Assembly: GCA_001600815.1 (NCBI GenBank)
Contig: BCKZ01000009.1
Span: 708,194 to 742,453 of the forward strand
Length of the DNA stretch: 34,260 nt
Reading direction: 5' to 3'
Source of the DNA: Alloascoidea hylecoeti
Taxonomy: Eukaryota
The position numbers were made by a program, and so were the translations under genes. Positions 946 through 34,260 of the stretch are shown here, piece after piece (positions within the stretch are counted from its first letter, which is position 1; each line of letters starts with the position of its first letter). The notes under the pieces are model-generated. The model worked only from the letters and a program-made list of their open reading frames with translations. It was not told where the DNA came from and did not search any database.

Positions 946-947
<2 letters not shown>

Positions 948-983
<36 letters not shown>
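948..983. repeat. (TA)n microsatellite
   Basis: Near-uninterrupted TA dinucleotide run. Confidence 0.9.
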
Positions 984-7080: not shown

Positions 7081-7121
7081 TGTGAGATCATTAACAGTAC
7101 TTGATCTTTGTGTAATATATC

Positions 7122-7545
7122 AGTTTCAAGTAATGAACTCAGTGAAGTCGATCAAGAAGATTAGAAGGAAGTCATGATTAAGGGAAATAATGATGATACA
7201 GTTGAATTTGATGGCATTATAATTTATTTTCCTGTATTTGGCGGTGAACAAGATCAATATATCCAACAAGACCTGAAGTAATATATATCTCTACTATATG
7301 TAGTCTATAGAAATTTAACACTCAAATTATTGGTAGATCGCCAGAGAAAGACGTTGAAGGATTGAGTCATCTTAATATCCAAATATGTACCACAACATTA
7401 GATACTTAGACAAAGAAGAGAAACAAACAAGTCTATTTCTTTGTCTTTGGTCGAGATACTTGAGCATCCTGGAATCTACAACTCTTTTTGATTCCCTACG
7501 GTAATATTAATATGTTCTATGGAAAGACCATTACTATACCTTTAA
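7122..7545 (+). pseudogene. MTD1: NAD-dependent methylenetetrahydrofolate dehydrogenase (MTD1-like) fragment
   Basis: GNNDDTVEFDGIIIYFPVFGGEQDQYIQQ ... SPEKDVEGLSHLNIQ/NMYHNIRYLDKEEK ... LVEILEHPGIYN ... PYGN..FYGK, compared with recalled Mtd1 NGIMVYFPVFGNAQDQYLQQVVCKEKDVEGLNHVYYQNLYHNVRYLDKE. Stops, frameshifts and an intron-sized gap are present. Confidence 0.85.
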
Positions 7546-7554
7546 AATAATAGA

Positions 7555-7880
7555 AAAAGAAGATGAGTCTTTTAATTTATATTGTTAATTTATTTTGGAT
7601 GAATTGTATGGCTTGCTAATGATTTGCTATTGACATGAGTTTTGACCGAAGCTGAATGTGTCACAGGATATATTGAAAGAAAACTTTCTCTTTGAAAAGT
7701 AATTAAGTGGGAACCACAGTAAAATGCTACCTCACAAACTATGGGATTCGACCATTTTTGGGGTTGTTTTGAATTATTTTGAATCAATACTTTTGCTCTC
7801 TTTTTGATTAACATATATGTTTTTCTTTTTGAAAGGAGCTGAGATTACCATGATCAATTACTGAAATCAAAATGAGCTTA
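7555..7880 (-). pseudogene. Divergent RanBP1-like family fragment (copy B)
   Basis: LISVIDH..., RAKVLIQNNSKQPQKWSNPIVC...ESFLSIYPV...SLASHTIHPK*, then YKLKDSSS. A clear paralog of 1580-2434 and 32998-33621, truncated. Confidence 0.8.
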
Positions 7881-8000
7881 GTAAGGAGGAGTTATAAATT
7901 TCAATATGTTGAAAATGTGCTTGTAGTTGGTCGTGTTGTTATGGTACTGGTAAATATTCTAGGTACGGATACAATTATAGAGCTATACATGTAACTTATA

Positions 8001-11000
8001 TTATTTATTTATCTTATTTACTGCAATCCCAATTTTATTGTACAGGAACCGCTTACTTGCCTCGTCTGGAATAGGAATAAACGGACCTTGTTTGCCCCCC
8101 TTAAGCCCTATCGTTATTCCTCCCTTTTCCAGCGTAATACTCCGGATTTGAGGGTAGCTAATAACCCATCGGGTGTTCATTTTCCCAAGAGAAACAAGCA
8201 TCAATCGTCTAAAAGTGACGATAATCGCCTTTTCGTCTCCTGGTAAACAAACATGCGCAATATACTCCTCTTCCTTTGCGAAATTCCCACCATTTACGGT
8301 CTTCAACCAAAATTGGCCCTGCGCTTCCCGGTGGGAATAAGGTTTGATAACCCCATCGTGGCCCACATATCTTGTTAAGCGAACCCGCTCTAATGCTCCT
8401 TGGTCAAAAACAGTCGTTGTGTTGCGAACTCCTTCACTAACACTAGATGCCATATCTAGCAGCCCAATGGCGGTTTTAGTAGGTAACCCAATAACACCTT
8501 TACCTAATCCTTTGAAAAACCCAGCGGCTCCTTCTTCTGCAACCCCCCGCATTGGACTTAATGCTATCCCAGCAATACCACTAGCTAAATTTTCTGCAAA
8601 TGATGTGGCTCCTTGTGTTATCCCATATAACGCATGTACTGGCCGGTTTCGATTTTGAACCAACCTTCTCTTTTCTTGATATCGCTTATCCATAGTTGCA
8701 ACAGATAATCCTTTAGCTGCACTACCCGTTAATCTAGAGATACTATCTGAAATCCCAAAGACAGATTTCTTAACAAAACTCAATCCCCCTTTAGCCAATC
8801 CAATCCCTAGTTCTTGTGGTCTATCATTCATTATAAATCCCTGATATGGTTGATAAAAAATATCCATTACTCCCGAACTAATATTACTAAATAAACCAAC
8901 GGGATTCCCAATAAAATCAGCTGATCCCAATATTTTATGGACCTGATAAATCGATTCTTGTGAATAATGTGTTGTAATTGATTGTAGCAATATAGGTATT
9001 GGAACCTTAACATTTTCCATAAATAATGCGTTTAATCGAACAGGTGCATCATTAATATTACCGATTGCCATTGAAAACATATCAAAAATAAAAATTAATG
9101 GTCCTGAGATACTTGATAATGATAAAAATTGAATATTATCAGAATTAACTGCATGAGTCCTCATAAATGATAAATCTATTTGAATCGGCTGAATATGTAA
9201 TGCTTCAAAATATATATTTAACCCATTTGATGTTTTTAAAGGTTCAGGAATAACTAAATTTTCAAAATTTGGCAACGATTCATCTTCAATTTTTTGTTTT
9301 GTGAAAAATGATCCTGTTTGTGATGCAAATTCAATCAATGCTAATAAAAAATCTTCATCTAAATCAAGCGCCATTTCTTGTAATAAAATCGTAGCATATT
9401 TAACAAATATAACTCCATGACTTTCATCCTTAACAATTGAAATTGACGATGAAATACATGGATGTAAATCCATACTTTTTCCATTTTTGGGTATAATTGT
9501 TGGATATAAAACAATTGGATAAATTCCATTAAATAACTGATTATCAATTTGTAACCATTTTAATTTAATACTATAATTTTGATAAATTTTTGATTCAATA
9601 TATTTTAACTCTGTTCCTTTTAAGGTAATATAACATAATTCTTTTAAATTTGAATTTATAATCGATATGCCAATTGTTTCAAAATTAATTAAAAATCGTG
9701 TCTTAATTGGATCATCGCTGTCATCAATTTCAAATTGTTCATTGTCAATACTCGATGCTAAGCTTTTATTTGACGATCTATACTGTTCAGTCAATTGATA
9801 TAAATTAAATTCTGAATTATATTCTGATATATATAATATTTGAACGGATCCTTCAACAGAAACATTAAATTCTAATATTTTCATTGCTCCTTTTGAATCG
9901 ATACATTTCATTGGTAATAAAGTACCGATTTCCGCAAGTTGAATCCTTCTTTTACTTTTTCCAATTTGTAAAATTAATTCCTTTTTACTAGATGCTGGAT
10001 AATCCCATGAATATGACATTGAACTTTTACCAGGTACCATATATTTAATCGGTTTATAATTATGTTTTAATGCTAATGTTGAATTTGAATTTGAATTTGA
10101 ACTTGAACTTGAATCTAAAATTGAATCGCTTTGATAATAAATTATATCAATATCACTATAATTTCGAATTGAATATGGCCATTGATCTTTTGCATCTTCA
10201 ATATGTATAAACAATGTTGCATCTTCTAATAACACATTAATTAATAATAATGTTGTTATAATTCTTTTAGATTGTGGCAATTGTCTTCGAACACGTAAAT
10301 ATGTTTTGCCAATATCATTAATACTAAATGCCGATGACCATATGATTTTTGATTTATTTGGATTATTATTTTTATTTGTTGGAAATCCTAAAAATATTGT
10401 TTTTTCTTTTGTTGATCTTATAAATTTTAATGACATTAAATCATTTGGATCCAAAATAAATGGTTCATTATCATCATCATTATTTTCAACGATATGAATT
10501 GTTTCACTTAATTTATTCTTCAAAACAAATCTTGGTGATATAGTAACCATTTTAGAAAATCTATAAATTCCAACACCCTCATTAACGGAAACCCCTGCAT
10601 TTATTTCTCTTTGCTTTGTTGATGAGTTCATTGCAACGTTGAAAGAACTACCAATTGCATCTAAACTGATTGGTTTACTCCATTCTGAATCGCCAACTTT
10701 TAGTAATGCTCGTCTATTTGTATCATTAACATCAAACGAAAACATGCTGGGTAATGCTTTTTTAATACTACCATTTGTTTCAGTATCATAAATTGATGAA
10801 ACTTTAGAAACAAGTGTATTATTATTTCTTGTTGCATTTCTTGCTAAATTCTTATTACTTGTTAATTTTAATTCTAAACCAGTTTTATTTAAAATTAAAA
10901 ATGGTGAACTGATATAAATCTTGATACCACGTCCTTCCTTTTCGTTTGTTTCATAGTTTAATCTAATGGTCAATTTTTGACCAGTTTCATTATTTTCAGT

Positions 11001-14000
11001 ATGTAATGTAATTTCTCTTTTATGATTTGTTCCCCTTGGTGCATTAATTACTGCAAAATCAGTCTGATTAAAGCCAGAATTTGGTAATTCAATAGTCAAC
11101 ATTAAAACGTGTGATAATCGAACAACATGAATTTGACTACTTTTACCATTTGATAAAAATGAAGCCCAATCCTTTTTAAGATGTGTGTCATAAATTTTAT
11201 ATCTTAAATCAAATGGTAACGTATTTATAATTTCTAGTGGTGATGTAACAACCAATCTTAAATTTGGATAAATTGTTGATGAATAAGTTTCTGGTGTTAA
11301 ATTATTTGCAACATGGATTTGGAAATTAAATAATGTTTTATCATGCTTCGTTAGTGATGGACAAATTAATGGGATTGAATTAGTATCTTTCTCAATTTCT
11401 TTCCATTGAATTCCATCAACTGACCAATCAAAATTAATATCTCTTTTGGGCACTGGTTTCATAAAGATTTCGGAGGAATACACAAATTCAATCGGAACTG
11501 AGCGACTATCACCTGGGTTTATAATACATTCTCTTCGATAATCATCTTCAAATATATGAACTCCAATCATTATTGGAATTTGTGTTTCATTTGCTATTCT
11601 GAATGATGAACCCAAAGTAATTCTTTTAACATAATCTTCACCAAGATTAACTGTGCACAATAATCGATCATAATATTTATTATTCTTTTTGGGTTTTAAA
11701 GTGTATAATTCTTCGCCTTCTCCGGTAACAGAAATACCATTTATACTTGAATATTGTGTATCTAATAATTCAACGCCAAGAATAGTTCTTTGATTATCCG
11801 TATCTAATTTCTCACGGATTTCCCTCCAATCTTCAAATCTCCATGGTATTTCTTCATCATCTTCCAATTCAGTAAGGTTTAATCTACTATCTTGACCTTT
11901 TAAATCAATCCATATTTTAATTTTGAAACCGGTTTGGTTTCTAATTCGATATGGTGATTCTTCACCTCGTGGTTTCACCAAATCATCTGATGAATAATTC
12001 ATCTGTGAAATAATTTCAGAAAATAATGATAATGAATAAGAAGTTACCGTAACTTCAACATTTTTCCTTGATACTAAATCTAATGATAATGTTTCTTTAA
12101 TTCGTGAAACATGGGCACCAAGTGTCCAAGGTTCAATAAATGGTTCCCATGCAGATTTTGAATAGTTGAAAATATTAACAAACATTATTAAATCAGAATC
12201 AACTTCCAAATCATTCGACCAATTTTTAGCACCAACCGTGAAAGGTCTAACTCTCATATCAATCATTGGTAATTCATGTATTGTTCCAATTATAACTAAT
12301 CTCATACCTTGCATATCAGCACAAAAAGTTTCATCTTTAATTAATATTTCAGCATCTGGAATATCATCATTGTCAAGAATATTATTATTATTAGGATTTG
12401 AATTAACAGTGGATCCAACACTTGAAATACTTTTAGCATACCTAGCAACGCCATCTTTAAATCGACTTGGAAATGTTAATTGCTGCATCTGATTATCATC
12501 ATTTTCGGTATTATCATCATCATCATTATTATACAAATTAGTTACTTTTTGTAAAATCGAAAGTACCAATTGAATATCCCTGAAAGATAATCTTAAAACA
12601 AGTGGTTCAACAGCAATATTTATCTTTGTTAACAATTTAGTAGATGTTGAATTTCTTGTATCAATTAATGAAGAAAATGAAAAATCATCTAATAATCTTA
12701 ATCTTTGATCATTGAATGATTTCATTCTACACAAAAACATTCCAATATTATTTCCAGAAATATTTAAAACTTTTAAACTCGATAATAAAAATTGATCGAA
12801 TTTAAATACAATTGCTTCTGTATTTTCATCTTCTGGATTTGCCAATACTATAACAAATGCATCAACAACATTAATTGAATATGCTATATTTGATCCTTCT
12901 TCTTCATCATCATCACTAGATTCTTTTTGTTTGCTATTAGTAGTAGTAGACTTCTGTATTTGTAATTTGGAGGTGTTTGCTATAGATTCATTTTCTCCTG
13001 CTTTTGGTAAATCAGTCAATACTTTAGCAGTTGAATTCGTTTGTAATTGATCTGAAAATAAAGCAACATCAACAAATGATTTTAAACCAAATAAATAATC
13101 CAACACAAGATATGTACGAGGACTATCAACAGATAGTGAAAAATTCATTTTTCTATTTGGATCTTTACCTGTTGTTTTAATAGATGACATAAATTGATAA
13201 TTATCTTCATGTATTGGATGAACAATATCAGTAAATTTATTATCACCAATTCTCCTAACATCTTCAACAGTAAAAGATTTTGCTTGTATATCTGCTGAAT
13301 AATTCCCATCATCCTTCATTTGTAATTGAATTGATGTTTCATTAAGTGAAAAAAGTGAAAGACCCTTTTCACTTATATCAGATGTATTGGTAGTATCAAC
13401 AAATATTTTTAATGCAATTTTATTGGCAAGAAATTTAAAAGTTATTTTTGTATAATTTGGATCAATATCACCAGGAGTATTAGCTTCAATATTTAATTCA
13501 TTTCTTTTAACTTCTAAATCTTTTGAATCTTGAGATGGTGTTATGAAAACAAATGGGACTGTTTTTATTAAGGAAAGTAAATAACGAGCTTGGATTTCAG
13601 TTAAATTCATTTCAATATCAGGCATTGAACCTTTCATTACCATCATTGGTCTATTAAATTTTTTACCTTCATCAAAAGATGATAGTTTAAAATCCATATC
13701 TAATTTATCAATTATTTCAACATGTTGTTCAATATTATTTGGATAATTAAAAGTAGATGTTAATCTAGTTGAACGGAAGCCAAATTCCATTAAATTAATA
13801 AGACATTTATTGTTTTCAATATCATGATAAACATAATCATTTTTTGCATACATTTCACCAAGATGGGCAGTTATTTTATCATATTTTTCAGTTTCAATAT
13901 TGAATTTTGGAAAAACAACAATTGGAGATTTTATTAAAATATCAAATTTCATTTTTCCACCTTCTTCTTCAACTTGATTTAAAGAAATTCTTCTTGCTGA

Positions 14001-17000
14001 ATCAAAAATTGCTTTTAATTGCAATAAATTACTTAAAAAATTTAGTAATTTTTTATATGGTTCTTCAATAAAATTAAAACGAATTGATTCTGAATGAAAA
14101 TAAACCATTGTAAATAAATCTTCAGTTTTTGTATTTGCAGCATCCATTGTTTCATATCTAATATCTGCTAAATTATCACCTTCAATACTAATTAATTTTC
14201 TTAAAACTGAATCTCTATCAACACCTTCATTTACTTCATCATGAAGTGTTAAAGCACCAAGATTCATTTTAACTTTCATTGTTCCACCTGCTAATAAAAC
14301 ATCAACATCTGCACTACTTAATTTTATAGTAGCGAGTTTTATACCATCATCATTTAAAATTAATGTGATACTATTCATTTCGATCATAACATCAATTCTT
14401 TGAGGTAAATCACTATGTTCATCTGTTTCAATTAATTTTGGAGGTGCATCATTACTAACGAATGTTGTTAAACAAAAATCAATAATTGTTAAAATACTTG
14501 TTCTCGTTACAACTACCAATATATCAGAAATTTTCAAATCAACCGATTGATCAAATAATTCAATAATACCTTCTTCAGTTAGAGCCATTCTTTGTTTTCT
14601 TGTATAATGGACAGTAAATAATTTAAATTGATCATCATTTTCTTTATTAGTTATAAATGATTTATTAAGAGATGTGGCTAACATTCTAAATTCAGGTGGC
14701 ATTGTAGGATCAATAAAATCTTCAATTTCTAATGATTTTAAAGTCATATCAACTTCCATATCAGGACCAATTTTAGCAAATTCAAGTTCTAAATTAGAAG
14801 CTCTGAGATCAACTAATCTTGATTGTTTGAAAGTTTTTTTATCTGTACATTTATATAGAGATAGTTGTACTTCATCAACAGAAAAATTAAAAGCAAGTAA
14901 TTTTTGAATGATGGTTGATTTTGAAGTATTATTGGTATTTGTAGTAATTGCTGATTGTTGATCATCATCATGTTCATTTATACTTGTTTCATCACTTGAA
15001 TATGAATCATCAATTAAATCAGCAAGATTTAATTCATCACTGTTGGCATCTTTATTTCTTATTTCATTATCAAAATCATCAAAATCAGGAATAACAGAAG
15101 TTAATAATTGCATCATAACTTTATATTTAGCATCCGACATTGAAGCACAAAACCTAGGAACATTTGCTGATACTTTAAATCTTGGCAATTCCTTTGATGA
15201 AGGAACAATTGACAATTCAGCAAGAAAACTTATATTTAATCTATCAAGAACATAAGAAGATCTTTCATTTGATTGAATATCATGAGAATGTAATTCAGAA
15301 ACAGTACTTTTAATAGTTGGACCAATTAATATTTGAGTATCTTCTAAAGTAATATTAAATTGATCATACATTAAAGAATTTAATTTATTCCAATCTTCTT
15401 TATTAATTGAATTTTTTGAATTGATATCTTCTTTTAATTTTGGGTCAGCTAATTTACTAACAACATTAATATGACCGGAATCAATTATACCACAAGGAGA
15501 ATTCCAAGTTGTTGGATCAATTGGTAATATAAATAATGGAGCTTGTAAATCTAAATTTAAATCAATTGTTTGATGTTCCTGTAATGCATATTCAAGACCA
15601 ATTCTTGTTTGATTTTTAAAATCATCAATAGTTGCTTCTGTAACATTCATTATTGCATCAATTGTTTCTTGATGAGATTTTAATGGCTTAAAGAATTTAT
15701 AAACTTCTTTTATATAACTAATATGATAAAAAACTGTTATACTTTTCATTTTTGAAAATAATGAATAATTTGCTATCGAATTCATTGGATTTTTTTCAAA
15801 TGATGCATAAAAAAAGGGTTCTTCATTGATACTTGATGATGATGATTTCGTTGGATCATGCATATCAGAATGAATTGATTTAACACTAACAACATGTGGA
15901 TAAATTGAATTTTCAGTACCATCTTCAACTCTGAATTCTTGTAAACTACATTCTGATAGAAAAGAATCAGGACGTTGTTTAAAAAAAGCTTTAAAATCAT
16001 CAAATACCAATTCAGTTATAAAAGCATTATTACTATTTGTTGGTGATAATGATGATGATTTTTTTAATTTAAAACTACCACGGGATAAAGATAAAATCAT
16101 ATTAAATATAACACGATCTTTCGGTAAATCAACAGATTCAATTAATGCTTGTTCATCAAAATCAATTGCTTCAAATAATTCTTTTCTTTGTTCTTCAGAT
16201 AATGTTTCATTTTCAGTTGCAATTGATTTTTCATTATTTTCTCCAGTTTCTGAATCAGTGATTGAATTTGAATCATCTTTTGTTCCCCATATCCAACTTG
16301 ACCAACTTGAATTTTGTTGAATTTGTTGTACTCTTGGTTGTAATAATTTTTCTTTTTTTAATTCAGCTCTTGTTAATGATCTATAAAATCTAATATCTTC
16401 AAAATCTAAAATCTTTTCGAGATTTTCAAATGATTTCTTTTCATCAATTGTCATTGATTTTTCATCAACATATTTTTTTTTATAAATTTTAATATATTCT
16501 TTTCTATTATCTCTTCTTTTTTTAAAAAATTCCCACGTCCATTTATATCTTGTCTCATGAACTTTATTTAATATAACTTTTATTGTATATAACATCCAAG
16601 CTTTTGGATCTTCATTGGGTTTAACACTTGGTCTAAATTTTCTAAATTTTTTGATTTTTTGATATAAATGAAATTGATTTGCCATCCATAAAGCATCTCT
16701 ATATTGATTTGAATCTAATTCAATGTCGATTACACCAAATGATAAATTTGTACTTGTTTTGGGGTTTTCCGGTGTTGAGCCTGCTTTATTTAGAGTAATT
16801 TTACCAATACCAGAAACAGGATTCACAATATATTGAATTTCGTTATCATTTGAATTATCATTTGATATTGAACTTGAACTTGAATTTGAAATATATTCTC
16901 TGAAAACTTGCAACATTTCTTCAGGAGTTTCAATATTTTGTTTTAAAGATTTAGTATCAGTATTCCAATAAATACTAAATTCAGTTAATGTTATTAATTT

Positions 17001-18000: not shown

Positions 18001-19439
18001 ATGTCAGATCAACAATCCAATGACAAGCCATTATGGTCTCAATTTCGTTCTCAATCTTGGAAATCCCGTACAAAAATAAGCAACTCGAATAACAATAGCG
18101 CCGATGGTGGTAGATATACAAATGCTCAGAACAAACACAAAAAGAACCATAACTTATCAGTTACTTCATCTGGCATGAAAAAGACAACTAAAAACTTCAA
18201 TACTGAAGAGAATTTTATTGGATTGGTTAGTCGTGGTGAAGACAGTTGGTATGTTATTTATTATTTATTATTTATTATTAATTATCACGATAATGGCTAA
18301 TTGTGCTCTAAAGTCTAAAACTTGACGAAAATGAAAGAGAGCGTTTCTTCAAAGAGATTCAAAAACAGGTAATTTCTTTCAATCTTATATCGAATAATAG
18401 TGATCTAATCTTTTTGTTACTCTTATAGTTCATTTTATATGTTCACTCAATAGTAGATGATGATATTGAGACATTACTAGATGGTGATCCTCTTCTAAAA
18501 TCCATTCATGGAATACCTTTAAACGTAACAATTACACAACCTCAATTACTTGATCATGTTACTAAGAAACCAATTATTACACTAGATCATTTATTCATGA
18601 ATCTAAGTAAGTAACTAATTATTTATAAATAAGTTAACAAAATATGTTTTATTAATTTTCATCATATAGGAAAATTAAGGGAAGTATTAATTAGTTCAAA
18701 ATTTACTTTATTTTCAAAAGAAGTCTTTTTATTTTCAATGCGTTTATCTGCAGTTTATGGCAATTATCAAAATTATATTCCAAGTATAAAGTATTTATTG
18801 ACTAATTCAAAATTCGAAACCAAAAACAATATTATTACCAATAACAATATTCTAAATATAACACATTTAATGAATAATTTAAAATTCAATGTCAATGAAG
18901 ATAACAAATTCATACAAATTGTTGATAGTCATAATAATTTAATATCAAATGATGAATTAATTGAAATTATTACAATATATGTTATACATTTAATTCATTT
19001 CAATAACAATGATAATGTTAATGATAATGATAATATATTAGAATCATTAATGATTTTAAACTATTATAAAGATATTCTTAAATTTAATAATGATCATTAT
19101 GAAAAACTTTGGATTATTTTAAAATCTTGGATAGATAAAGATTATTATAATTGGTTTACAATTTATAAAAGTTATGCTTATACTAATGAAACTAATGTAA
19201 TTAATGAAAATAACAAATTTTCTTATTCATATTCAATTTTTAAAATTATGGACTTTGGTAAAAAAAAAATGGCATTAGAAGCATTAAGTAAGATTGGTTC
19301 CTCATATTTCTTTATAAATAAAAGTTATTTGGAAGATTTAATTGATTATAAATGGAGTCAGATAGTTGATGATTTAAATTGTAAATGGAGGGATGATGGT
19401 GTTGTTATAACTATTAGGGAAAGGAAGTCTAAGAAATGA
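18001..19439 (+). CDS. Conserved fungal protein, probable SAC3/THP3- or CSN8/PSMD8/eIF3K-type PCI domain; exons 18001-18248, 18314-18368, 18429-18606, 18670-19439 (416 aa)
   Basis: Three GT-AG introns join the two ORFs in frame. Motifs GLVSRGED, LFMNLRKLREVL, FSKEVFLFS.RL...GNYQNYIPSIKYLL, and a winged-helix-like C-terminus IGSSYFFINKSYLE...CKWRDDG. The family call is tentative. Confidence 0.7.
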
Positions 19440-20206: not shown

Positions 20207-22394
20207 TTATTTAGATGGATCTTCTTCAAATCTTAAATCCCATCCAATTTTTGGTCCTAAAGTTGGTAAAACTTCAGCTACACTTTGAACATCCTTATCA
20301 CCTCTACCACTTAAACAAATAACAATATTTTGTTCAGGCTTTAAAGTTTTTGCTAATTGAATTGCTCCATAAACAGCATGAGATGATTCTAAAGCTGGAA
20401 TAATACCTTCTAATTGTGATAATAATTTAAAACCTTGTAAAGCTTGAGCATCAGTTGCTGCTATAAAAGTAGCACGACCATTGGCTTTCCATGATGCTAA
20501 TTCAGGTCCAACACCTGGGTAATCTAATCCAGCTGAAACAGAATGAGTGTCTTGAATTTGTCCATCTTGGTTTTGTAAAACATAGGTTTTAACACCATGT
20601 AAAACTCCGGCATGACCAGCAGTTAATGTAGCACTATGTCTTGGAGTATCGATACCATCACCACCTGCTTCAACACCAAATAATTGAACAGATTTATCAT
20701 TTTCAAAAGGTGAAAACATACCAGATGAATTACTACCACCACCAACACATGCAACAACTGCATCTGGTAATTTCCCATCATTTAATGCTTTAAATTGTTC
20801 CTTGGTTTCATTACCAATTACACTTTGGAAAGTTCTTACCAATGTTGGATATGGATGTGGGCCAATAGCACTTCCAACAACATAATGAGTTGTTGAAAGA
20901 TTGGGTACCCAAAATCTAAAAGCTTCACTTGTTGCATCACGTAAAGTTTGTGTACCATTCTTAACAGCAACAACATTTGCTCCTAATAATTTCATTCTGA
21001 AAACATTTAAAGCTTGTCTTCTAACATCTTCAGCACCCATAAATACGGTACATTCTAATCCAAATTTAGCAGCAGCAGTCGCAGTTGCAACACCATGTTG
21101 TCCAGCACCAGTTTCAGCAATAACTTTTTTTTTACCTAATCTTTTAGCTAATAAAACTTGTGCTAGAGCATTATTGATTTTATGTGATCCTGTATGATTT
21201 AAATCTTCACGTTTTAACCAGATTTTTGCACCTCCTGCATATTCAGTTAATCTTGGAGCTTCGTGTAATGAGGAAGGACGACCAATATAAGAATATAATG
21301 ATTTAAATTCAGCCCAAAATGAAGGATCATTGACAGCATCTTCAAACCCACGTTCTAATTCCAAAAGACATGAGTGTAAAGCTTCAGGTACATATTGTCC
21401 ACCAAATTGTCCAAATCTTGGATTGAATTGATGTTTTTCTCCATCATTTTCAGATTCAATGTTGATTTGATTTTTCTCTTCTGATGAATTTAAAATAGAA
21501 GATGCAGCTTCGGGATGAGCAGGTGTTTGTTCTTTGGCTTCATCACCAGTGCCATGAACAATTGAAGAAACATAATCTTTAACTGCTTCCCCTCTCTTAC
21601 CAGCAGGTGAATTTTCTAAAACTGAGATGATTTTAGATCCGATAACAACACCATCGGCAGCAGAGCCAACAGTCAAGAAATGTTGTCTTGTACTAACCCC
21701 AAATCCAACAGCCAATGGGATATCACCACTAAAAGTTCTAATATGATCACATAATTCAGTAACAGTTGCGGAAACTTCTTGTGAAGCACCGGTTGTACCC
21801 ATTCGTGAAACCACATATATAAAAGAGTCAGCAATACTTGATAAAACTTTTAATCTAGAATCACTTGTAGAAGGAGCTACCAATGGAATATAACTAAGAC
21901 CTGATTTCGTTGCATAAGTTCTAAATTGAATAGCTTCTTCTGGTGGTAAATCAACGACAATAAACCCATTTGCTCCGGCATCTTTTGAATCTTGGATCAT
22001 TTTTTGTTCTCCATATTGTAGAATTGGATTATAATAACCCATTAAAATAATTGGAATAGTAACACCTGCTGATCTTGCCTTTTTAACTAGTTCAAGAGAT
22101 AACGAAACAGATATACCATTTTCTAAAGCTACAACATTTGCTTTTTGGATTGTTGGACCATCAGCAATTGGATCAGAAAACGGAACACCAAGCTCAATTA
22201 CTTCAGCACCACCTTGCTGTAATCCAAGCAAAGTAGGAACGGTATCTTCGATGGTTGGGTACCCAGCAGTAACAAAAGTTACAAGAGCTCTTCGGCCTGA
22301 AAAATATTAGATTCCGCTTCAGGCAATCGGTTTATAAAGCAAACATACCCTCTTTTTTACACTTTGAAAACACTTCTTTTAACTGAGCAGACAT
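20207..22394 (-). CDS. TRP5: Tryptophan synthase (fused alpha/beta), exons 22394-22349 and 22296-20207, 711 aa
   Basis: [41 protein letters not shown] (PLP lysine), [23 protein letters not shown]. 52-nt GTATGT..CTAAT..CAG intron. Confidence 0.98.
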
Positions 22395-22547: not shown

Positions 22548-25043
22548 ATGTTGGCAATGTTTAGTTTATTTGCCTTATTTTTCTCATTTGCCTTGTTTGT
22601 GGTTAGTTCGGCTGATAAATTAGATAATATTCTATACAATGAGTATTCAAGAGCGTCCAATGCTTCCTTATTATGGGGTCCTTATAGGCCAAACGTCTAT
22701 CTTGGAATACGACCAAGAATCCCGTTATCTTTAATATCAGGTTTTGTATGGTTCAATGCTGATGATCTATCAGGGATTTCAAATGCAAGACATTTTTGTA
22801 ATCAACATGATGATTTAAACTCATTTGGGTGGACGAATTATGATCCAAGAATTGGTGGAACTGAATTTATCAGTGATAATAATGCTAAACTTAATCTAAC
22901 TTTTAATTTTATAAAAACTCCAAATGGGAAAAATTGGGGTGTTAAGGTTAAAGGTGTTCCATTTAATAATGATAAAAATACTATATCTAGTATTGTTTTT
23001 TATACTGGTTTACAAGGTGCTGGAGAAATATCATTATCGAATAAGCCAGAAGATAAAGGTTATACTAGACCAATTCATATAAAAGGATCAACACCTGAAT
23101 TAGGTCAATTTCATTTAACAGTTACAAATGGTCCAAAAACTAATGTTCATCCTATATCTCGTCATCCAATTGAAAAGCTTCTAACAAGTACGAAAACTCA
23201 TCATATGAGTTTAAAAATTCCTGATGAATTTTTATGGAAAGCCAAAGATGTTTTTTATACTTTAGTACAACAATCAGCAGAAAAATTAGGAGAATCATAT
23301 CAAAAAGAAAATGTTGAAATGGCTCCAGCTCATAATATTTTCACTTTAAGAAATTTAGAAGGTTATACAGGTAATTTACATTTTGTTCAAAAAACATTCA
23401 AAGGGGAATTTGAATTTGATGTGTTGTACAATACAATTGGTGATGAAAGTGAAGATGAAAAATTAGATGATAAGAAATTATCTAAACTTTCTGAAATTGC
23501 TTTAGAAAAATTCAAACAGAAATTTGATTTAAAATTTGATTTAAAGTATCCTTATAATAATGATGAACATAAACGTTTCGGTCAAGAATTATTATCCAAT
23601 CTTATGGGAGGTGTAGGATACTTTTACGGAGATTCAATCGTTGATAGAACACATGAAAATGATTATGATGAATATGAAGATGAAGAAGATGAAGAATACA
23701 ATAGTATTACTAATAATGAAAAGAAAAAACCAACAGTTGAACCTCCTCATGAGTTATATTCTTCTGTACCAAGTAGACCTTTTTTTCCAAGAGGTTTTTA
23801 TTGGGATGAAGGGTTTCATTTAATTCCAATACTTGAATATGATCTTGATCAAACATTAGAAATTTTAAGAAGTTGGTTTTCTTTAATTGATAATAATGGT
23901 TGGATTGCAAGAGAACAAATTTTAGGTCCTGAAGCTAGGAATTTTGTACCTGAAGAATTTCAAACACAATATCCTCATATTGCAAATCCTCCTACTTTAA
24001 TGATTGTTTTTACTTCATTATTAGAAAAGGCTAAAGAACAAGAATTAAAATTAAAAGAACAACAACAAATAAATGAAGATTTCATTAATTTAAATGATGA
24101 TATTTTAAATCAATTTAAACATTTTAAATATGAAGATTTAGGTGAAGCTCATATGAAATATCCAAGTTTATTAGTTAATTACGCACATGAGATATATCCT
24201 AAACTTCAAAAGCATTACGAATGGTTTAGACAAAGTCAAGCAGGTGAAATAACAGAATGGGATCGTGAAGCTTATTCAAATAAAGAAGGGTATAGATGGA
24301 GAGGAAGAACTGAAACTCATTGTCTTGCAAGTGGTCTTGATGATTATCCTCGTGCCCCTGATCCAAATGAAGCAGAACTTCATGTTGATTTATTATCTTG
24401 GATTGGTGTTATGACAAGATCAATGAGGCAGATTGCACAATTATTAGAAAAAGAAGAAGATGAAAATAATTATAAAGATATTGAATACTCCATTCAAAGA
24501 AATCTAGATGATTTACATTGGAGTGAAAAGGATAAAACATATTGTGATTTAACATTAAATGATGAAGATGAAACTGAATTTGAATGTCATAAAGGTTATA
24601 TTTCAATTATGCCTTTTTTACTTGAATTATTAGCAATTGATTCACCACATATAAAGCCATTAATCGAAACAATTAGCAACCCAGAAGAATTATTTAGTCC
24701 ATATGGTATTCGAAGTTTATCTAAATCAGATGAATATTTCAGAACAGCCGAAAATTATTGGAGATCACCAATATGGATAAACATGAATTATTTAGCACTT
24801 AAATCATTAAAATATTATGGAGAAGGATCTTCTGATGAAGAAGTTCAAAAATTGGCAGCCGAGACGTATAAACAATTAAGAAATAATATAGTTGATAATG
24901 TTTATAATCAATGGATTAATACAGGATTTGCTTACGAACAATATGATGAATCAACTGGGAAGGGACAAGGTGTTCGGCATTTCTTAGGATGGACTTCCTT
25001 AGTTATTATGATTATGGGTATGGAACCAAACCTAACCATTTAA
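22548..25043 (+). CDS. CWH41: Mannosyl-oligosaccharide glucosidase I (GH63)
   Basis: N-terminal hydrophobic anchor, SLLWGPYRP, VPSRPFFPRGFYWDEGFH, GWIAREQILG, ANPP, CLASGLDDYPR, YWRSPIWINMNYL, YEQYD..TGKG...HFLGWT. Confidence 0.97.
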   Translation: MLAMFSLFALFFSFALFVVSSADKLDNILYNEYSRASNASLLWGPYRPNVYLGIRPRIPLSLISGFVWFNADDLSGISNARHFCNQHDDLNSFGWTNYDPRIGGTEFISDNNAKLNLTFNFIKTPNGKNWGVKVKGVPFNNDKNTISSIVFYTGLQGAGEISLSNKPEDKGYTRPIHIKGSTPELGQFHLTVTNGPKTNVHPISRHPIEKLLTSTKTHHMSLKIPDEFLWKAKDVFYTLVQQSAEKLGESYQKENVEMAPAHNIFTLRNLEGYTGNLHFVQKTFKGEFEFDVLYNTIGDESEDEKLDDKKLSKLSEIALEKFKQKFDLKFDLKYPYNNDEHKRFGQELLSNLMGGVGYFYGDSIVDRTHENDYDEYEDEEDEEYNSITNNEKKKPTVEPPHELYSSVPSRPFFPRGFYWDEGFHLIPILEYDLDQTLEILRSWFSLIDNNGWIAREQILGPEARNFVPEEFQTQYPHIANPPTLMIVFTSLLEKAKEQELKLKEQQQINEDFINLNDDILNQFKHFKYEDLGEAHMKYPSLLVNYAHEIYPKLQKHYEWFRQSQAGEITEWDREAYSNKEGYRWRGRTETHCLASGLDDYPRAPDPNEAELHVDLLSWIGVMTRSMRQIAQLLEKEEDENNYKDIEYSIQRNLDDLHWSEKDKTYCDLTLNDEDETEFECHKGYISIMPFLLELLAIDSPHIKPLIETISNPEELFSPYGIRSLSKSDEYFRTAENYWRSPIWINMNYLALKSLKYYGEGSSDEEVQKLAAETYKQLRNNIVDNVYNQWINTGFAYEQYDESTGKGQGVRHFLGWTSLVIMIMGMEPNLTI

Positions 25044-27052: not shown

Positions 27053-27347
27053 GGCTCTGTTTCAATCCGCGCTTCCCCGTGTACAAAAGAACGAACTGTA
27101 AAAAGTTCGTTAGAAAACACTAGAAAACGGGTGGGAAATTCGGTGGTACTTCTCCAAAAAATTATTAGTTCTTGAGAACAGGATTATTCTGTGGAAACGG
27201 ACTGCGATGCCATTAGAAATCTAAAACTTTTCAAAAGTTTATGGGAAGGGTATTGCTGGGGATTGGGTCCTACAGGGACTTGTTTAGTGCAATGCGCGGA
27301 CTAAGGTGGAAATCTTAGCACTCGATACCGATCAATGGGACAGAGCC
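27053..27347 (+). ncRNA. RPR1: Nuclear RNase P RNA
   Basis: Conserved regions in order: GGTGGGAAATTCGGTGG, CTTGAGA, TGTGGAAAC, AGTGCAAT, ACTCGATACCGAT. P1 pairs GGCTCTGTTTC with GGGACAGAGCC; P2 pairs TCCGCGC with GCGCGGA. T-tracts follow. Confidence 0.93.
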
Positions 27348-28321: not shown

Positions 28322-29689
28322 TTATAGGAAAAGAACAGATAAACCTGCAATAACACTAAAACCTGCAAATAAAACACTATTCCCATTTGAATTCATAACA
28401 GCACCACCAGTAGAAGTAGCAGTTGCTGAAGCACCACTTGTACCAGAAGCAGAAGAACCACTTCCAGATCCTTGAGTTTTAACAACAACAATTAAAGTTG
28501 TATCTTCACCACTTCCGGATCCTTTAATAACTGAAGTCTTTGTGGCTTCTTTTGTTGTTGCAGCATTACTTGTTGTTTCTCTAACAATTACTAAAGTTGT
28601 TAAATCTTCACCAGTTCCTAAAACTGAAGTTTTTGTTGTTTTACCGACTGTTGCTTCATCAGAAGATTTATGTTTTGTTGTTGTTTCAGTAACTTTTGAA
28701 CCATTTGTTGTTTTAACGACAACAACGGTTGTTTCTTCTTCATCAGAACTAGATTTTGATTTTGTTGCAGCAGTTGTAATTGTAGAAGAAATAACAGAAC
28801 CATTTGTTGTTTTAACGACAACAACGGTTGTTTCTTCTTCATCAGAACTTGATTTTGTGGCAGTAGCTGCAGAAGTAATTGTAGAAGAAATAACAGAACC
28901 ATTTGTTGTTTTAACGACAACAACGGTTGTTTCTTCTTCATCAGAACTAGTTTTTGTGGCAGCGGCAGAGGTAATGGTTGAAGAAATAACAGAACCGTCA
29001 GAGGTTGTAACGACAACAACGGTGGTAGCTTCATCAGAGGCAGAATTTGTGCTTGTAGCAGCGGCAGAAATGGTACTAGTGGAGGAAGAAACTGAACCGT
29101 CTGATTGTGTAACGACAACAACGGTAGTAGAATCACCAGAAGAAGAAGTTTCAGCGTTTGAAGCGGATTCGGTATTTGTAACACCTCTATCACCATTGGT
29201 AGTTGCTTCTTCGGAAACTTGGGTGGTAGCGGCGGTAGTAACCTGGGTGGTAGCTGCTTCGGTGGTAGTAGCTTCAGTGGTGGTCTGGGTAGTTGCAACG
29301 GTGGTAGCTTCAGTAGTGGCGGTAGTAGCCTGAGTAGTAGCTTCGGTGGTAGCCTGGGTGGTAGCCTGGGTGGTAGCAACAGAAGTAGTTTCAACGGCAG
29401 TAGCAGTGTTTGTTGCAACAGAAGTAGCCGCACCTTCGGCAGTTGTAGGATTGACATAAATGGTGGAAGTGGCAGCAGCACCACCACCATAAATAAGGGT
29501 AGGGACGATAGTTGTAGAAGTATAGGTGGTAATGGCGCCATTGTTGGAAGAGATCAAGAGATTGATGTAAGTGAGGTAATCAGTCGAGATGGCCAAACCA
29601 ATGTAGGAGGTGTAAGTGACGACCACAGCGTTAACGGAAGAAGCCAAAAGGGCGGCGACCGCGAGGGAAGAAGAACGAGAGAGTTTCAT
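28322..29689 (-). CDS. Secreted GPI-anchored Ser/Thr-rich cell-wall protein or adhesin-like protein
   Basis: Signal peptide MKLSRSSSLAVAALLASSVNA, Thr/Ser-rich body with repeats, C-terminal hydrophobic GPI signal, TATATAAA at 29754-29761. Confidence 0.9.
   Translation of the reverse strand: MKLSRSSSLAVAALLASSVNAVVVTYTSYIGLAISTDYLTYINLLISSNNGAITTYTSTTIVPTLIYGGGAAATSTIYVNPTTAEGAATSVATNTATAVETTSVATTQATTQATTEATTQATTATTEATTVATTQTTTEATTTEAATTQVTTAATTQVSEEATTNGDRGVTNTESASNAETSSSGDSTTVVVVTQSDGSVSSSTSTISAAATSTNSASDEATTVVVVTTSDGSVISSTITSAAATKTSSDEEETTVVVVKTTNGSVISSTITSAATATKSSSDEEETTVVVVKTTNGSVISSTITTAATKSKSSSDEEETTVVVVKTTNGSKVTETTTKHKSSDEATVGKTTKTSVLGTGEDLTTLVIVRETTSNAATTKEATKTSVIKGSGSGEDTTLIVVVKTQGSGSGSSASGTSGASATATSTGGAVMNSNGNSVLFAGFSVIAGLSVLFL
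28690..29140 (-). repeat. About 99-bp coding tandem repeat (SSDEEETTVVVVKTTNGSVISSTITSAATATKS), about 5 units
   Basis: Identical anchors at 28702, 28801 and 28900, plus two more diverged units upstream. Confidence 0.9.
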
Positions 29690-30530
29690 TGTCTAAAGAA
29701 GTGGAGAGGAACTGAATTGATGAAGAGAAGAACGAAGGAAGGGAGTTGGGGGATTTATATAGTTTTATATAGAAATAGAACAGGAACGCAATTGGTAGCA
29801 AGTTGGTAGCTATGCAGATCGCATAGTCGTATTTGGTAGTAAATATTATTGAGAGCCGTTTGACATTTCGAGCTGCCAGCCACGAGCCCTGTGGGTGATG
29901 CGTGCGACAGCCAGGACAACAGCAGTCAGCCAGCCTTTTCTCTGGCAGGGCTGGGTGCTTCTATTATTAAAATATGGACATTGGATACAACATATGACCA
30001 CATGCATCTCCAACTATTTAAATACAAATTTACATTGCATCATTGCTGATTTGACAAAGATCACTGTTTCTCGTGGGCCCATTCCAGCACGTTATCCCTC
30101 CTGGGCCGCGGCGTCGCATCTCACCTTCAGCGGAGGGTGTGTCGGTGCGATGCCAATTGTCAGGATATGGTAGAATATATAGATGGATGGTCGATTCGAG
30201 CTCGAATCCTGATATGCGTGGAATATGCAAGTAATTTAATATCCAATGTCTATGCATATTGCATATTTCACATCCATAGCCAACAACCTCTTTTAAATTT
30301 ATCCAATTACAACATTTATTGCTTTTCGTAACGGTGGAAGCCTGTCGTCACCTCTAGTTCGTAGAGTGTTCTGCTCTGTTTGTCTGTCACTAATGTCAAG
30401 TATATACCAACAAATACACAACTATTTTGTATGCCTGTGTGTCGTATGCTTAAAACTATTAAAGATCTAGATATAGAACGTGTGCGCATTCTATCCTATA
30501 ATCAGCCATCTCCTAATCATTAATTAATAA

Positions 30531-31360
30531 CTACTTTGGAATTTTAACCTCCAAAATTACAATGTCCAAAGTTTGCTATATTTTCGAATTCATTATTAAT
30601 TAAAATCTTCCATTTTTACCTTAATTTAATTAAAATATGCTTACCTTTAATTGTTTTCCAATTAAATTACATGAATTATCACCGTCAAACACAAATAATT
30701 AAATTAAAAACTTACTTTTCCCTTTCTTTCATTATATATTTTATTTAATTTTATTTGCTTAACTTTTATCAATAATCTTTGTTATTTCTTTCTTCTTTTG
30801 AAATTAATTCATCTCCTCGTTATTATTATTATTAAATGTTTTAAGTTTTGCGTTTAGAATTTTATTTTTTCTTGTTCGTTGTTGGTGATGATGATAAGAG
30901 TTCACATTGTTGTATAATATTTAATTAATATAATATAATATTAACAATATAATAAATTAAAATGATAACATTTGGATATACTTACTTGTTTTGAGTTCAC
31001 CAAAAGATAAAGAAATTTCTTTTTCTCTTTCTTTTAATTTCTCAATTTTATCATTTAATTCTTCAACAGAAGGACAGCCATCTAAATTATCTGGCTAAAA
31101 ACCTTAAATTTTATTAATAATATGATACCTGTGTAGCAATATAAAACGTTTGTTTACCATAAGTTTTCCTGCTGAGTGTAATGATTCTAAAACTTTAACA
31201 AATGTTGCTTTATTTATTGTATTATGAAGATTTATAATTATGTCGGAAACTGAATATGAACGATTTTGTTTTTTTAAATAATCAAAGATTGTATTTTTGA
31301 AATATTAGTATGCATATTCATTTCTAAGTATTTATGTATAACTTCAGAAATATCTAATTT
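30531..31360 (-). pseudogene. HOP2: HOP2 pseudogene (copy 2), no transposon insertion
   Basis: IFDYLKKQNRSYSVSDIIINLHNTINKATFVKVLESLHSAGK/TYGKQTFYIATQ resembles Hop2 (DYL..QNRPYS..DI..NLH...TFGK). It carries a frameshifting deletion and has lost most of the penultimate exon. Confidence 0.85.
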
Positions 31361-31394
31361 TTAATTTTTACACATACATGTATGATAATGATTA

Positions 31395-31666
31395 ACAAAA
31401 TAAAGATTTTTGACATCTCAGAAAATATTGAAATGAGACTTTTTAGTGATTTTACAGTAATTGAGCAAAAAAAATGCATCTCCTCATTTAGCAAGAATAT
31501 CACAGAGAAATCCTTTATCAGTTGATGATTTGATCAGTTATAAATACTATGCTCATGAATCCGGTCAAAAGGTTAATGCTTATGTTCTGGATACTGGTTT
31601 CAATTTTGATAATCCGGAATTTGAAGGAAGAGGTCATTTTGGTGCTGATTTCACTGGTGATGGACC
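31395..31666 (+). pseudogene. Subtilisin-like (S8, proteinase K/Prb1-type) protease fragment, cut by an assembly gap
   Basis: NASPHLARISQR...YKY....GQKVNAYVLDTG...PEFEGR..FGADF (catalytic Asp motif). A +1 frameshift lies in the A8 run near 31467, and no N-terminus is seen. Confidence 0.8.
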
Positions 31667-31766
31667 NNNNNNNNNNNNNNNNNNNNNNNNNNNNNNNNNN
31701 NNNNNNNNNNNNNNNNNNNNNNNNNNNNNNNNNNNNNNNNNNNNNNNNNNNNNNNNNNNNNNNNNN
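31667..31766. other. Assembly gap (100 N)
   Basis: Run of N. Confidence 1.
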
Positions 31767-32368
31767 AAGCGAAAGCTTTGATTCAAAATGATTCAAAACA
31801 ACCACAACAATGGTCGAATCCCATCGGTGACTTTGAAAAAATATCAACGAATGGATATTATCAAGATATAAAAGTAGATTTCGAAATGAGAGCAAAAGTA
31901 TTGATACAAAATGAACCAAAACAACCACACAAATGGTCGACTCCCATAACTTGTAAGATACAAATTACCCATGGTGTTATGAATGGTCTTCAAAATGAAA
32001 GTTATATTTCAATATTTCCAGTTTCAGCTTCAAATTCGCTTAATATTTCCAGCAACGAAGCATTAATAACCCATACAATTCAGCCAGAATATAAATTGAA
32101 AGACTCATTTTCTGATTATTTTAAGTTACCTGAGTCTTTAAATCTAGATGAAGAATATGTGTATCAAAGATACACGATTACTAGAACTAGAGATATTAGC
32201 AGAGCTATTTATCTAGAAAATTGTGAACTTTTGTCGATAGAAATTGGTTTAATTTTTGGAACAGAAGAGAACAAAAAGTTGTTTGAATTAAATTTCAGAA
32301 AAGGTCAACTTTACAATGAAAATCAACGTAGAGGTAAAATGTATGAAGATTGGATTTTTTTATCTTAA
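31767..32368 (+). CDS. Divergent RanBP1-like family protein (copy C), 5' end lost in the gap
   Basis: Open frame nearly identical to copy A, without copy A's deletion and C-terminal frameshift. Confidence 0.7.
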
Positions 32369-32472
32369 GGGTGAGCTGTATTCATGTAAAACTTAACCTC
32401 TAGCTATATTTAGTTTTATGTATGAAGATGTTATTTAAATTCAAGTCTACGCGATTATATGCATTCTGACTG

Positions 32473-32660
32473 TGATGGTCAAAAGTTTCATATTTGTATT
32501 ATAAATGGGTGGTATATTTATCAGCAAAACTTTCTTCTGACCTGCGCGGGTCTTATATATAAAATTTTAGTACACGTTTTATGTTATATACAGATATTCG
32601 CGGAGGTCAGAAAGTTTGTTAAGATAAAAAGTCAAAAAATAAATTTTCTGACCAATATCA
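32473..32660. repeat. Imperfect fold-back, MITE-like element
   Basis: AAACTTTCTTCTGACCTGCGCG versus CGCGGAGGTCAGAAAGTTT. Outer arms TGATGGTCAAAAG and TTTTCTGACCAATATCA. Confidence 0.5.
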
Positions 32661-32997
32661 AATAAGCACTTACATCCGGTATGTAGTACACTACTTGATT
32701 TTTTCATCTATGTCATATCACAAATTGCTTCTCTAAAAATATCTTCAGACGCAAATATTTTCAAATAGGCGACAAGTTAAAAAGAATGAAATATCAGTAT
32801 TAGGGTAATCCTTTTTCTTATAAATAGCGTATAGTTTCTACTTTTAATATATATAAACCATCCAATATATTTTACATTTTACTTTCCATTACTGACATGA
32901 AACATTTCCTAGAAGATATCTCGAGATTAAACTATATAAAACTAAATCTACCTAGAGGTAAATGTTACATGATCATGAGTACAACTCAGCCGCAGGA

Positions 32998-33621
32998 TCA
33001 AAAAAAACAATTTTGATATCTCGTATCCCTACGCTGATCTTCATTGTAAAGTTGTCCTTTTTTAAAATTTAATTCAAACAACTTTTTGTTCTCTTCTGTT
33101 TCAAAAACAAAACCAAATTTTACTGACAAAAGTTGATCACGATTTTCTAGATAAAATGTTCTGCGAATGTCTGTAGTTCTAGTAATCGTGTATCTTTGAT
33201 ACACATATTCTTCATCTAGATTTAAAGAGTCATGTAAATTAAAATCTTCAGAAGATGAGTCTTTTAATTTATATTCAGGCTGAATTGTGTGGAGAGCTAA
33301 TGATTTGTAATCGGCATTAGTGTAGACTAACCTCGAAGCTGGAACTGAAAATATTTCAAGATAACTTTCACGTTCAAAAGTAGTTGGGTGGATACCATGG
33401 TAAAATTCTACCTTACAAACTGTGGGGTTCGACCATTTTTGTGGCTGTTTTGGATCATTCTGAATCAAAATNTTTGCTCTCATTGTGAAAACTAGTTCTT
33501 GATTTTTATAATATGCCCCTTCCAAATTGCCATCTGTGGGTATATTATAATTAGGTTCTAGTGAAGTTCGTTCGGCCTTCTTATCTTGATCAATTATCGA
33601 AATCAAATGCTTTTTGTCCAT
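32998..33621 (-). CDS. Divergent RanBP1-like family protein, short form (copy D, 207 aa)
   Basis: Complete ORF MDKKHLIS...ELVFTMRAXIL..KW...ALHTIQPEYKLK...YVY...TTDI...KFGFVFETEENKKLFELNFKKGQ. One N at 33472. Confidence 0.72.
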   Translation of the reverse strand: MDKKHLISIIDQDKKAERTSLEPNYNIPTDGNLEGAYYKNQELVFTMRAXILIQNDPKQPQKWSNPTVCKVEFYHGIHPTTFERESYLEIFSVPASRLVYTNADYKSLALHTIQPEYKLKDSSSEDFNLHDSLNLDEEYVYQRYTITRTTDIRRTFYLENRDQLLSVKFGFVFETEENKKLFELNFKKGQLYNEDQRRDTRYQNCFF

Positions 33622-33985
33622 GATAAAATTATTATAGTATTGATTTCTGGGGATAATGGTAAAGAAAAAGAGCTCAAGTGAAAAAAATAATCATAATTAA
33701 TATATTCATATGCATAATATCAAAAAGGTATAGGAAACGGTGTTGAAACTTTAACGTCAAATAACACTGCATAATTATAACAATTCCATGTAAGATAGCA
33801 ATCTTGAACTTCTCACTGATATCCCAATACATCAATTGCATGTTTATAATTATATTTTTAGTAAGTACTAGTAGTTATTGCTTTATAGGTGGTCGTAGAC
33901 TATAGCTGTGTGATACAGTAATTATGTTGTTGTGCTAAATATTATAGGTATCGATCTTATATAATCAGACATATATTTTTAATTA

Positions 33986-34260
33986 TCATTTTAAATTTGG
34001 AATTTTAACCTCCAACATTACAATTTCTAAAGTTTCCTATATTTCCATTTTCATTATTAATTTTTATTTTTCATTATTCCCTTAAATTTAATTAATTAAA
34101 ATATGCTTACCTTTAATTGTTTTGGATTTGGTGCACTTTCTTCAACTGCTCCCCAAAAGTTTTTAAACTATATCCCAATCATTTAAATTTTGATTAGTTC
34201 ATAAATTATCACCATCAAAAAAAAAAATAAAAAATAATTAAATTGAAAACTTACTGTTTT
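33986..34260 (-). CDS. HOP2: HOP2 3' exons (copy 3; visible exons intact, gene continues beyond the window)
   Basis: Exon 34167-34111 (FKNFWGAVEESAPNPKQLK) and exon 34036-33986 (ETLEIVMLEVKIPNLK*) have canonical GTAAG/AG sites. The next donor is at 34254. Confidence 0.6.

Follow-up and report, generated by a model that had tools for sequence, protein, structure and literature searches.

The 34,260-nucleotide (nt) stretch of Alloascoidea hylecoeti DNA analysed here (contig BCKZ01000009.1 of assembly GCA_001600815.1, positions 708,194 to 742,453 of the forward strand; hereafter the window) contains several copies of an orphan open reading frame (ORF), two of them placed downstream of sequence related to the meiotic gene HOP2. 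Judged from profile searches and predicted structure, the orphan is a strongly diverged derivative of the Yrb1/RanBP1-type Ran-binding domain, and the repeats are likely to have arisen by birth-and-death segmental duplication of HOP2 together with a Yrb1-derived gene, with HOP2 as a passenger. PMC3032688 treats RanBP1/Yrb1 as a conserved component that the last eukaryotic common ancestor probably already had. Normally this part of the nuclear-transport machinery is conserved and encoded by a single gene, whereas here we find a derived family of at least 12 sequences. The repeat unit consists of HOP2, a spacer of ~370 bp and the downstream orphan ORF, and occurs as two co-oriented minus-strand units, A and C:

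1509-3579, resuming at ~5416-5466 past a transposon, minus strand: unit A, with orphan ORF, spacer and HOP2-like exons.
32933-34260, minus strand: unit C, with orphan ORF, spacer and HOP2 3′ end, ended by the window edge.
2435-2817, minus strand: spacer A, from the HOP2-A stop to the orphan A start, 383 bp.
33622-33985, minus strand: spacer C, 364 bp.

Self-comparison by blastn aligned 33548-34260 with 2361-3080 (79% identity over 768 gapped columns, E = 0) and 32926-33514 with 1496-2024 (72.5% over 590 columns, E = 2e-97), with ungapped blocks between the units 87–94% identical; these repeat matches are far beyond chance. The two spacers share blocks of 88–95% identity, and a 3′ flank is common to all three long orphan copies for ~75–90 nt past the stop, after which the sequences diverge. 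The first-pass annotation, made from the sequence alone, had described a HOP2 and orphan ORF unit occurring twice with a shared spacer and 3′ flank, and the self-alignments, ungapped blocks and flank comparison bear this out. It had also pointed to further pieces near 7555, 30531 and 31767, which map to 7542-7814, 30497-31362 and 31767-32417, and had given the first unit a span of 1580-5466. This span is correct, since the sequence on both sides of an inserted transposon is collinear with a further HOP2 copy, HOP2-B, 5421-5455 matching 31328-31362 at 94% identity. Because introns and spacer were copied too, the duplication took place at the DNA level, and retroposition is ruled out. Unit boundaries of the Helitron or long terminal repeat type were considered and set aside: the shared 3′ flank ends after a stretch containing CTAGCTAG, with no hairpin or other hallmark visible by eye.

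Four copies of the orphan ORF lie in the window, three of them long, and one carries internal tandem repeats:

1509-2434, minus strand: orphan copy A, ORF 1580-2434 of 284 aa, plus ~75 nt of shared 3′ flank.
32933-33621, minus strand: orphan copy C, ORF 32998-33621 of 207 aa, with complete domain and shared 3′ flank.
31767-32417, plus strand: inverted orphan copy, A-type, with complete domain, the frame open from a scaffold gap to 32368.
7542-7814, minus strand: orphan fragment F7, a 74-aa ORF at 7590-7814 holding the domain first half only.
2142-2301, minus strand: tandem repeats in copy A, three 51-nt units, 97–98% identical.

The inverted copy encodes 160 aa from a Met at 31886. Aligned to copy A, it shows 97% identity across 431 ungapped nt, or 90% across 651 columns when gaps are included. 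Compared with it, copy A lacks 45 nt in frame and a further 5 nt, the loss of which shortens its C-terminus, and the start of its domain is partly duplicated internally. Each 51-nt repeat of copy A encodes the motif PPQY, at residues 52, 69 and 86, and the expansion keeps the reading frame; no PPxY motif occurs in copy C, the inverted copy or F7. Fragment F7 is identical to database protein P0007. As CTG codons are absent from the ORFs studied, the choice between the standard and the CTG-Ser code is irrelevant for them.

The first-pass annotation had proposed, from resemblance to Yrb1, that the orphan is a RanBP1-domain derivative, a kinship that emerges here through intermediates and structural matches. 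A first profile, built from the window copies and four close relatives, retrieved eight PDB sequences at E ≤ 10, seven of them yeast Yrb1 (E 0.09–0.31, two collinear segments each). A 13-sequence family profile run against 177,635 PDB sequences matched Yrb1 chains only (7/7, E 9.5e-6 to 3.3e-5). The window-family HMMER profile matches the more distant relative P0008 at 9.4e-22, and P0008 alone aligns with Yrb1 over the whole domain (E = 4e-6); window copy C matches another, P0012, by BLASTP (3e-16, 29% identity over 161 aa), which is 64% identical to P0008 and, with 27.1 bits, passes the gathering cut-off of the Pfam family Ran_BP1 (23.2 bits). P0008 and P0011 score 14.9 and 19.5 bits, both below the cut-off. 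Conservation with Yrb1 is seen in RAK-L, Trp, H-I-PEY and FG--EN---F--F---Q blocks. Two low-confidence AlphaFold models both place strands in beta-sandwich order before a long C-terminal helix, as in the pleckstrin homology (PH)-like fold. The Foldseek matches listed above rank 46 are all Ran-binding domains of RanBP1 or RanBP2 (best E 2.5e-4), and VIA-align gives Z scores of 10.7–9.1 over 113–133 residues against Ran-binding domains.

A HMMER scan of 1.84 billion representatives yielded only eight proteins at E ≤ 0.001. Beyond the window there are seven close database relatives (P0001-P0006 and P0009; P0007 is the window’s own F7) and four distant ones (P0008 and P0010-P0012), each relative being a singleton cluster, on contigs of 3.9–30 kb that all differ in size. 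A metagenome scan with the family alignment gave 75 pattern matches, none of them confirmed (0/75). Window-type (subfamily I) sequences thus number 12, four from the window and eight from the database including P0007, and six of these 12 are clearly truncated or deleted (F7/P0007, P0003, P0004, P0005, P0006 and P0009). As far as these sequences show, the family has few members and does not extend beyond a narrow lineage; in searches of the open-access literature we came upon no account of yeasts having a multigene family derived from Yrb1. The earlier characterisation of the orphan as multi-copy and fast-diverging holds in so far as it is multi-copy (four in the window, seven close and four distant relatives) and diverging; the signal of positive selection that might go with it was not seen.

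Several changes set the family apart from Yrb1/RanBP1, with which it has in common the homologous domain, the order of strands and helix and the best structural matches. Yrb1/RanBP1 is single-copy and has ERG after the conserved Trp and an acidic N-terminal stretch before the first strand; the orphan family is multi-copy, reads SNP, STP, SDP or SEP in the alignments at the position of ERG, and lacks the acidic stretch. It also has an insertion of ~10–14 residues after the PEY block and new N-terminal leaders, with PPxY motifs. We take the W-K-E-R-G motif after the Trp to contact Ran, and a change of its ‘ER’ to abolish binding in RanBP3. The title of PDB entry 2y8g names a RanBP3 E352A-R353V double mutant, presumably altered in the ‘ER’ of this motif and without Ran binding. 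With ‘ERG’ replaced and the acidic stretch gone, the orphan domain probably no longer binds Ran-GTP canonically, and the replacement of this Ran-contact motif makes a role in the Ran pathway doubtful.

The sister branch formed by P0008, P0011 and P0012 has a domain more like that of Yrb1. All three full-length proteins start with MGxxxS (two of the three also have a Cys nearby), carry DPPPY at one conserved position and keep the whole domain, at 63–81% identity, so that this looks like the better preserved and more likely functional branch. MGxxxS is the N-myristoylation consensus, and PPxY is the WW-domain ligand of Rsp5/Nedd4 ligases. From the N-terminal PPxY and the MGxxxS start of the sister branch we would guess, with low confidence, at a membrane-associated or Rsp5/Nedd4-ligase-linked adaptor; the likeness to PPxY-bearing adaptors of these ligases lies in the PPxY of copy A and the sister branch, as a predicted WW ligand. 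The family may in this way represent a core-machinery domain recruited anew, its fold kept, its Ran-contact motif dropped, and PPxY and myristoylation-type signals added. Its turnover is also of the sort for which a family comes under suspicion of a part in conflict or adaptation.

The HOP2 side of the repeats comprises three copies, one of them interrupted by a transposon:

2818-3579, minus strand: HOP2 pseudogene A, with Pfam winged-helix exon and lesions.
5416-5466, minus strand: 5′ end of HOP2-A, separated by the transposon and lying upstream of it, with its ATG at 5466-5464 and in collinear order with sequence upstream of HOP2-B.
30497-31362, minus strand: HOP2 pseudogene B, with Pfam winged-helix exon and lesions, and no orphan ORF after it.
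33986-34260, minus strand: HOP2 copy C, 3′ end only, the last two exons, ended by the window edge.
3601-5415, ends approximate, plus strand: pogo/Tc5-like DNA transposon with DDE_1 and terminal inverted repeats.

That this sequence is HOP2, as named at first pass, is secured by the winged-helix exons of copies B (48.8 bits, 6.8e-13) and A (32.8 bits, 6.5e-8), which exceed the gathering cut-off of the Pfam TBPIP/Hop2 winged helix (PF07106, 22.8 bits). In copy A the winged helix contains an in-frame TAA where copy B reads CAC, the frame changes three times or more, and 48 nt present in copy B are missing; its last two exons are intact. Copy B has no ATG at the site where copy A has one; its frame shifts within the winged helix, one 3′ splice site is gone, stops occur, and most of its penultimate exon is deleted. 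One of its frameshifts falls in a run of A and might stem from a sequencing mistake, but this cannot account for the HOP2-B lesions taken together. HOP2-A and HOP2-B are pseudogenes, unable to encode protein. The last two exons of HOP2-C are open, with canonical splice sites (introns GTAAGT/GTAAGC...ATATAG). An intact first exon and intron could not be built for any of the HOP2 copies. The coiled-coil/leucine-zipper part gave three exon translations of only 31–48 aa, without a Pfam match at E ≤ 1, and a search for an annotated full-length HOP2 among longer proteins, with the winged-helix exon as query, gave seven candidates and none at E ≤ 0.001, which is weak evidence. Copies A and B resemble the meiotic recombination factor HOP2/TBPIP in winged-helix domain and introns, and perhaps in coiled-coil-like exons, and differ from it in that no protein is encodable, copy C being visible in its last two exons only. 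The transposon, inserted in the HOP2-A 5′ region, has terminal inverted repeats of 203 nt (3624-3826 and 5203-5405, 92% identical) and a DDE_1 ORF at 4169-5089 (Pfam 7e-20). It is probably defective, because no match to a DNA-binding domain was found in its ORFs upstream of DDE_1. On either side of it there is apparently a duplicated TA or GTA.

Divergence between units A and C is uneven. Identity is 88–97% in the HOP2 3′ part and spacer, 64–77% in the domain first half and 85–91% in the second half, and the flank gives a Jukes–Cantor distance of 0.115 over 593 sites. The synonymous divergence (dS) is 0.15–0.20 in the domain second half and 0.39–0.50 in the first. The second half of copy C is nearest to copy A and the inverted copy (74–78% aa identity), whereas its first half is 58–61% identical to P0001-P0003 against 47% to copy A. 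As the excess divergence of the first half is synonymous too, the switches in A/C similarity point to exchange between paralogs rather than to positive selection or other adaptive change. The ratio of nonsynonymous to synonymous divergence (dN/dS) is 0.54–0.74 for whole-length pairs and 0.22–0.95 for domain halves (second half 0.22–0.67). A value of 1.34 for copy A against the inverted copy in the first half comes from only six differences, and values of 0.7–1.7 for pairs with fragment F7 from little data. Significance was assessed for the domain and leader comparisons among the three long copies, and none of these departs significantly from a dN/dS of 1 (|z| < 1.6).

In the history we favour, a founder orphan gene would have sat downstream of HOP2, and duplications would have taken HOP2 sequence along. 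The segmental duplications, at the DNA level, would have carried HOP2 with its introns, the ~370-bp spacer and the downstream Ran-binding-domain (PH-like) gene. The HOP2 passengers would then have rotted, A by stop, frameshifts and transposon, and B by start loss, frameshift and exon deletion, and the orphan family would have undergone birth and death by duplication, segment exchange, deletions, tandem-repeat expansion and decay. Both HOP2 copies that are fully readable, A and B, are pseudogenes, so that the orphan's association with a meiotic gene seems to be one of hitch-hiking; caution is due with this apparent link, for which hitch-hiking HOP2 pseudogene fragments are the best explanation. 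The first-pass annotation had proposed a role in meiotic drive or its suppression and had named passive duplication as the alternative; it is the passive duplication with decay that fits better.

That the Ran-binding-domain-derived family is a selfish element or suppressor (spore killer, meiotic driver) turned over by an arms race seems to us decidedly unlikely. The family is multi-copy and confined to a narrow lineage with many dead copies, segments have been swapped between paralogs, a protein-interaction motif has recently expanded in tandem, and the copies sit among pseudogenes and a transposon, all of which would suit such an element; in passages of PMC8645118, moreover, duplicated nuclear-transport genes of Drosophila (Ran-like, Ntf-2r, importin-alpha) are proposed as drivers or suppressors. 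Such turnover is, however, typical of ordinary dispensable gene families too. Positive selection is not seen, the dN/dS values being compatible with 1 or lower, the linked HOP2 copies A and B are dead and provide no functional meiotic tie, ERG is replaced, and neither a poison-antidote architecture nor transmembrane segments were noticed. The 383- and 364-bp spacers contain no middle sporulation element (MSE, CRCAAAW) and no URS1 core, a weak point since these are S. cerevisiae consensus sequences that may not apply here; MSE-like words occur in the window at a background of 0.79 per kb. Drive or suppression therefore finds no support in the present data. A related and very unlikely reading is that a duplicate of Yrb1, an essential Ran cofactor, gave rise in a budding-yeast lineage to a fast-turnover conflict family (spore killer, drive suppressor, self/non-self) on losing the Ran-contact motif and gaining MGxxxS as a membrane anchor and PPxY to recruit ligases. 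Were it true, it would be a fungal parallel to the Drosophila nuclear-transport duplicates. These, including Sd-RanGAP, resemble the orphan family in recurrent duplication and turnover in the Ran system (PMC8645118), and differ in that they arose mostly via RNA intermediates and are testis-expressed, whereas the orphan family is DNA-level and known from sequence alone; a RanBP1 duplicate is absent from that account (0 occurrences of ‘RanBP1’ in PMC8645118).

It is unlikely, too, that the window copies are all non-functional relics of a long-dead YRB1 duplicate, spread by segmental duplication and with frames open by chance, a view that would accommodate the lack of significant dN/dS departure from 1 in the three long copies, the truncation of about half of the family members, the two deletions in copy A and the company of pseudogenes (HOP2-A, HOP2-B and a SUR2-like gene). 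Leucine codons in the orphan ORFs are, in addition, less TTA-biased than in the VPS13, TRP5 and CWH41 genes of the window centre. Against this view, ORFs of 160–284 aa have stayed open although the genome is AT-rich, dN/dS in the second half of the domain is 0.22–0.67, and the PPQY expansion is in frame. The conservation of MGxxxS, DPPPY and the whole domain in the sister branch further argues that at least this branch is functional. We consider it highly improbable that the repeats reflect a fault of assembly or scaffolding, or that a single locus is represented here by its diverged alleles or homeologs set next to each other. Such an origin is brought to mind by a 100-N scaffold gap at 31667-31766, which cuts the 5′ part of the inverted copy, and by single Ns at 2113 in copy A and 33472 in copy C (one X each, 8 nt apart homologously), so that all three long copies are affected at a homologous site; the inverted copy begins exactly at the base following copy A’s N and is 97% identical to copy A over 431 nt. 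The assembler evidently broke at the leader/domain repeat boundary in all three. The copies nevertheless differ by 10–30%, with large indels and a transposon, and their 3′ flanks differ beyond ~80 nt. We accept the joins because open frames cross both single Ns and because the independent proteins P0003 and P0004 join leader and domain in one ORF; the second similarity switch, moreover, falls in uninterrupted sequence.

Segmental duplication of a Yrb1-derived gene with HOP2 as passenger has points of its own to answer, which we set out together as weighing against it. None of the four window copies matches Pfam Ran_BP1 (PF00638) at E ≤ 1, nor do any of four close relatives. The AlphaFold models have a mean predicted local distance difference test (pLDDT) score of 52.9 and 48.7 (the latter with P0008 first, 13 rows), and in VIA-align EVH1 (Z 10.0) and PH domains (Z 9.2) score nearly as high as Ran-binding domains, so that the fold alone says PH-like only and it is sequence that singles out Yrb1; the best ESM Atlas score, 0.78, was to a bacterial cluster and uninformative. 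The database relatives may or may not belong to the genome of the window, and linkage to HOP2 is known for the window copies alone. With dN/dS of 0.5–0.95 and |z| < 1.6, weak constraint and neutrality are inseparable. What is suggested about function is based on short motifs and a presumed Ran-contact motif. The assembly is least certain at the leader-domain join, where Ns occur in all three long copies; the link of leader and HOP2 to domain rests partly on scaffolding, and a chimeric join might explain some of the first similarity switch.

Among the dispensable gene families of yeasts that evolve by birth and death, a likeness is found in the TLO family of Candida albicans, which PMC5908203 describes as an expansion of MED2 homologs. 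Both families are confined to particular lineages, grew out of one single-copy gene and include truncated members; TLO differs in its founder gene and in its subtelomeric site, which is not evident for the orphan family. Repeats, pseudogenes and a transposon are interspersed at both ends of the window (1-8000 and 29700-34260). A subtelomeric location is not shown, because between the two repeat clusters lie 22 kb of ordinary genes in the window centre, among them VPS13, TRP5, a CWH41-like gene and the RNase P RNA:

8001-16916: VPS13, a 2971-aa ORF, named from a by-eye reading with no tool match behind the name.
20207-22042: TRP5, a 611-aa ORF, named by eye with no tool match.
22548-25043: CWH41-like gene, an 831-aa ORF, likewise named by eye with no tool match.
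27056-27344: nuclear RNase P RNA, Rfam RF00009, 59.8 bits, full length.

The window is AT-rich (GC 26–39%) and resembles a budding-yeast scaffold. The RNase P RNA was the sole Rfam family match in the whole window, and no tRNA genes were found in it. A GC-richer patch at 29898-30260 has ORFs overlapping on opposite strands and no Rfam match at E ≤ 1 (29650-30550 scanned), and an Asn-rich 233-aa ORF at 18738-19439 has no Pfam match. A fatty-acid-hydroxylase gene at 6106-6799, SUR2-like on a by-eye reading, is split across three reading frames, the last piece matching Pfam FA_hydroxylase at 7e-12, and is probably a pseudogene. Next to the scaffold gap, 31461-31666 encodes the beginning of a mature protease of the subtilisin type (proteinase K match, E = 1.3e-4), with no pro-domain upstream and with its 3′ side entering the 100 Ns. 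A Ser/Thr-rich ORF of 455 aa at 28322-29689 contains tandem repeats of 96–99 nt; judged by eye, it begins like a signal peptide, ends in a hydrophobic stretch and resembles a protein of the cell wall or of the glycosylphosphatidylinositol (GPI) type.

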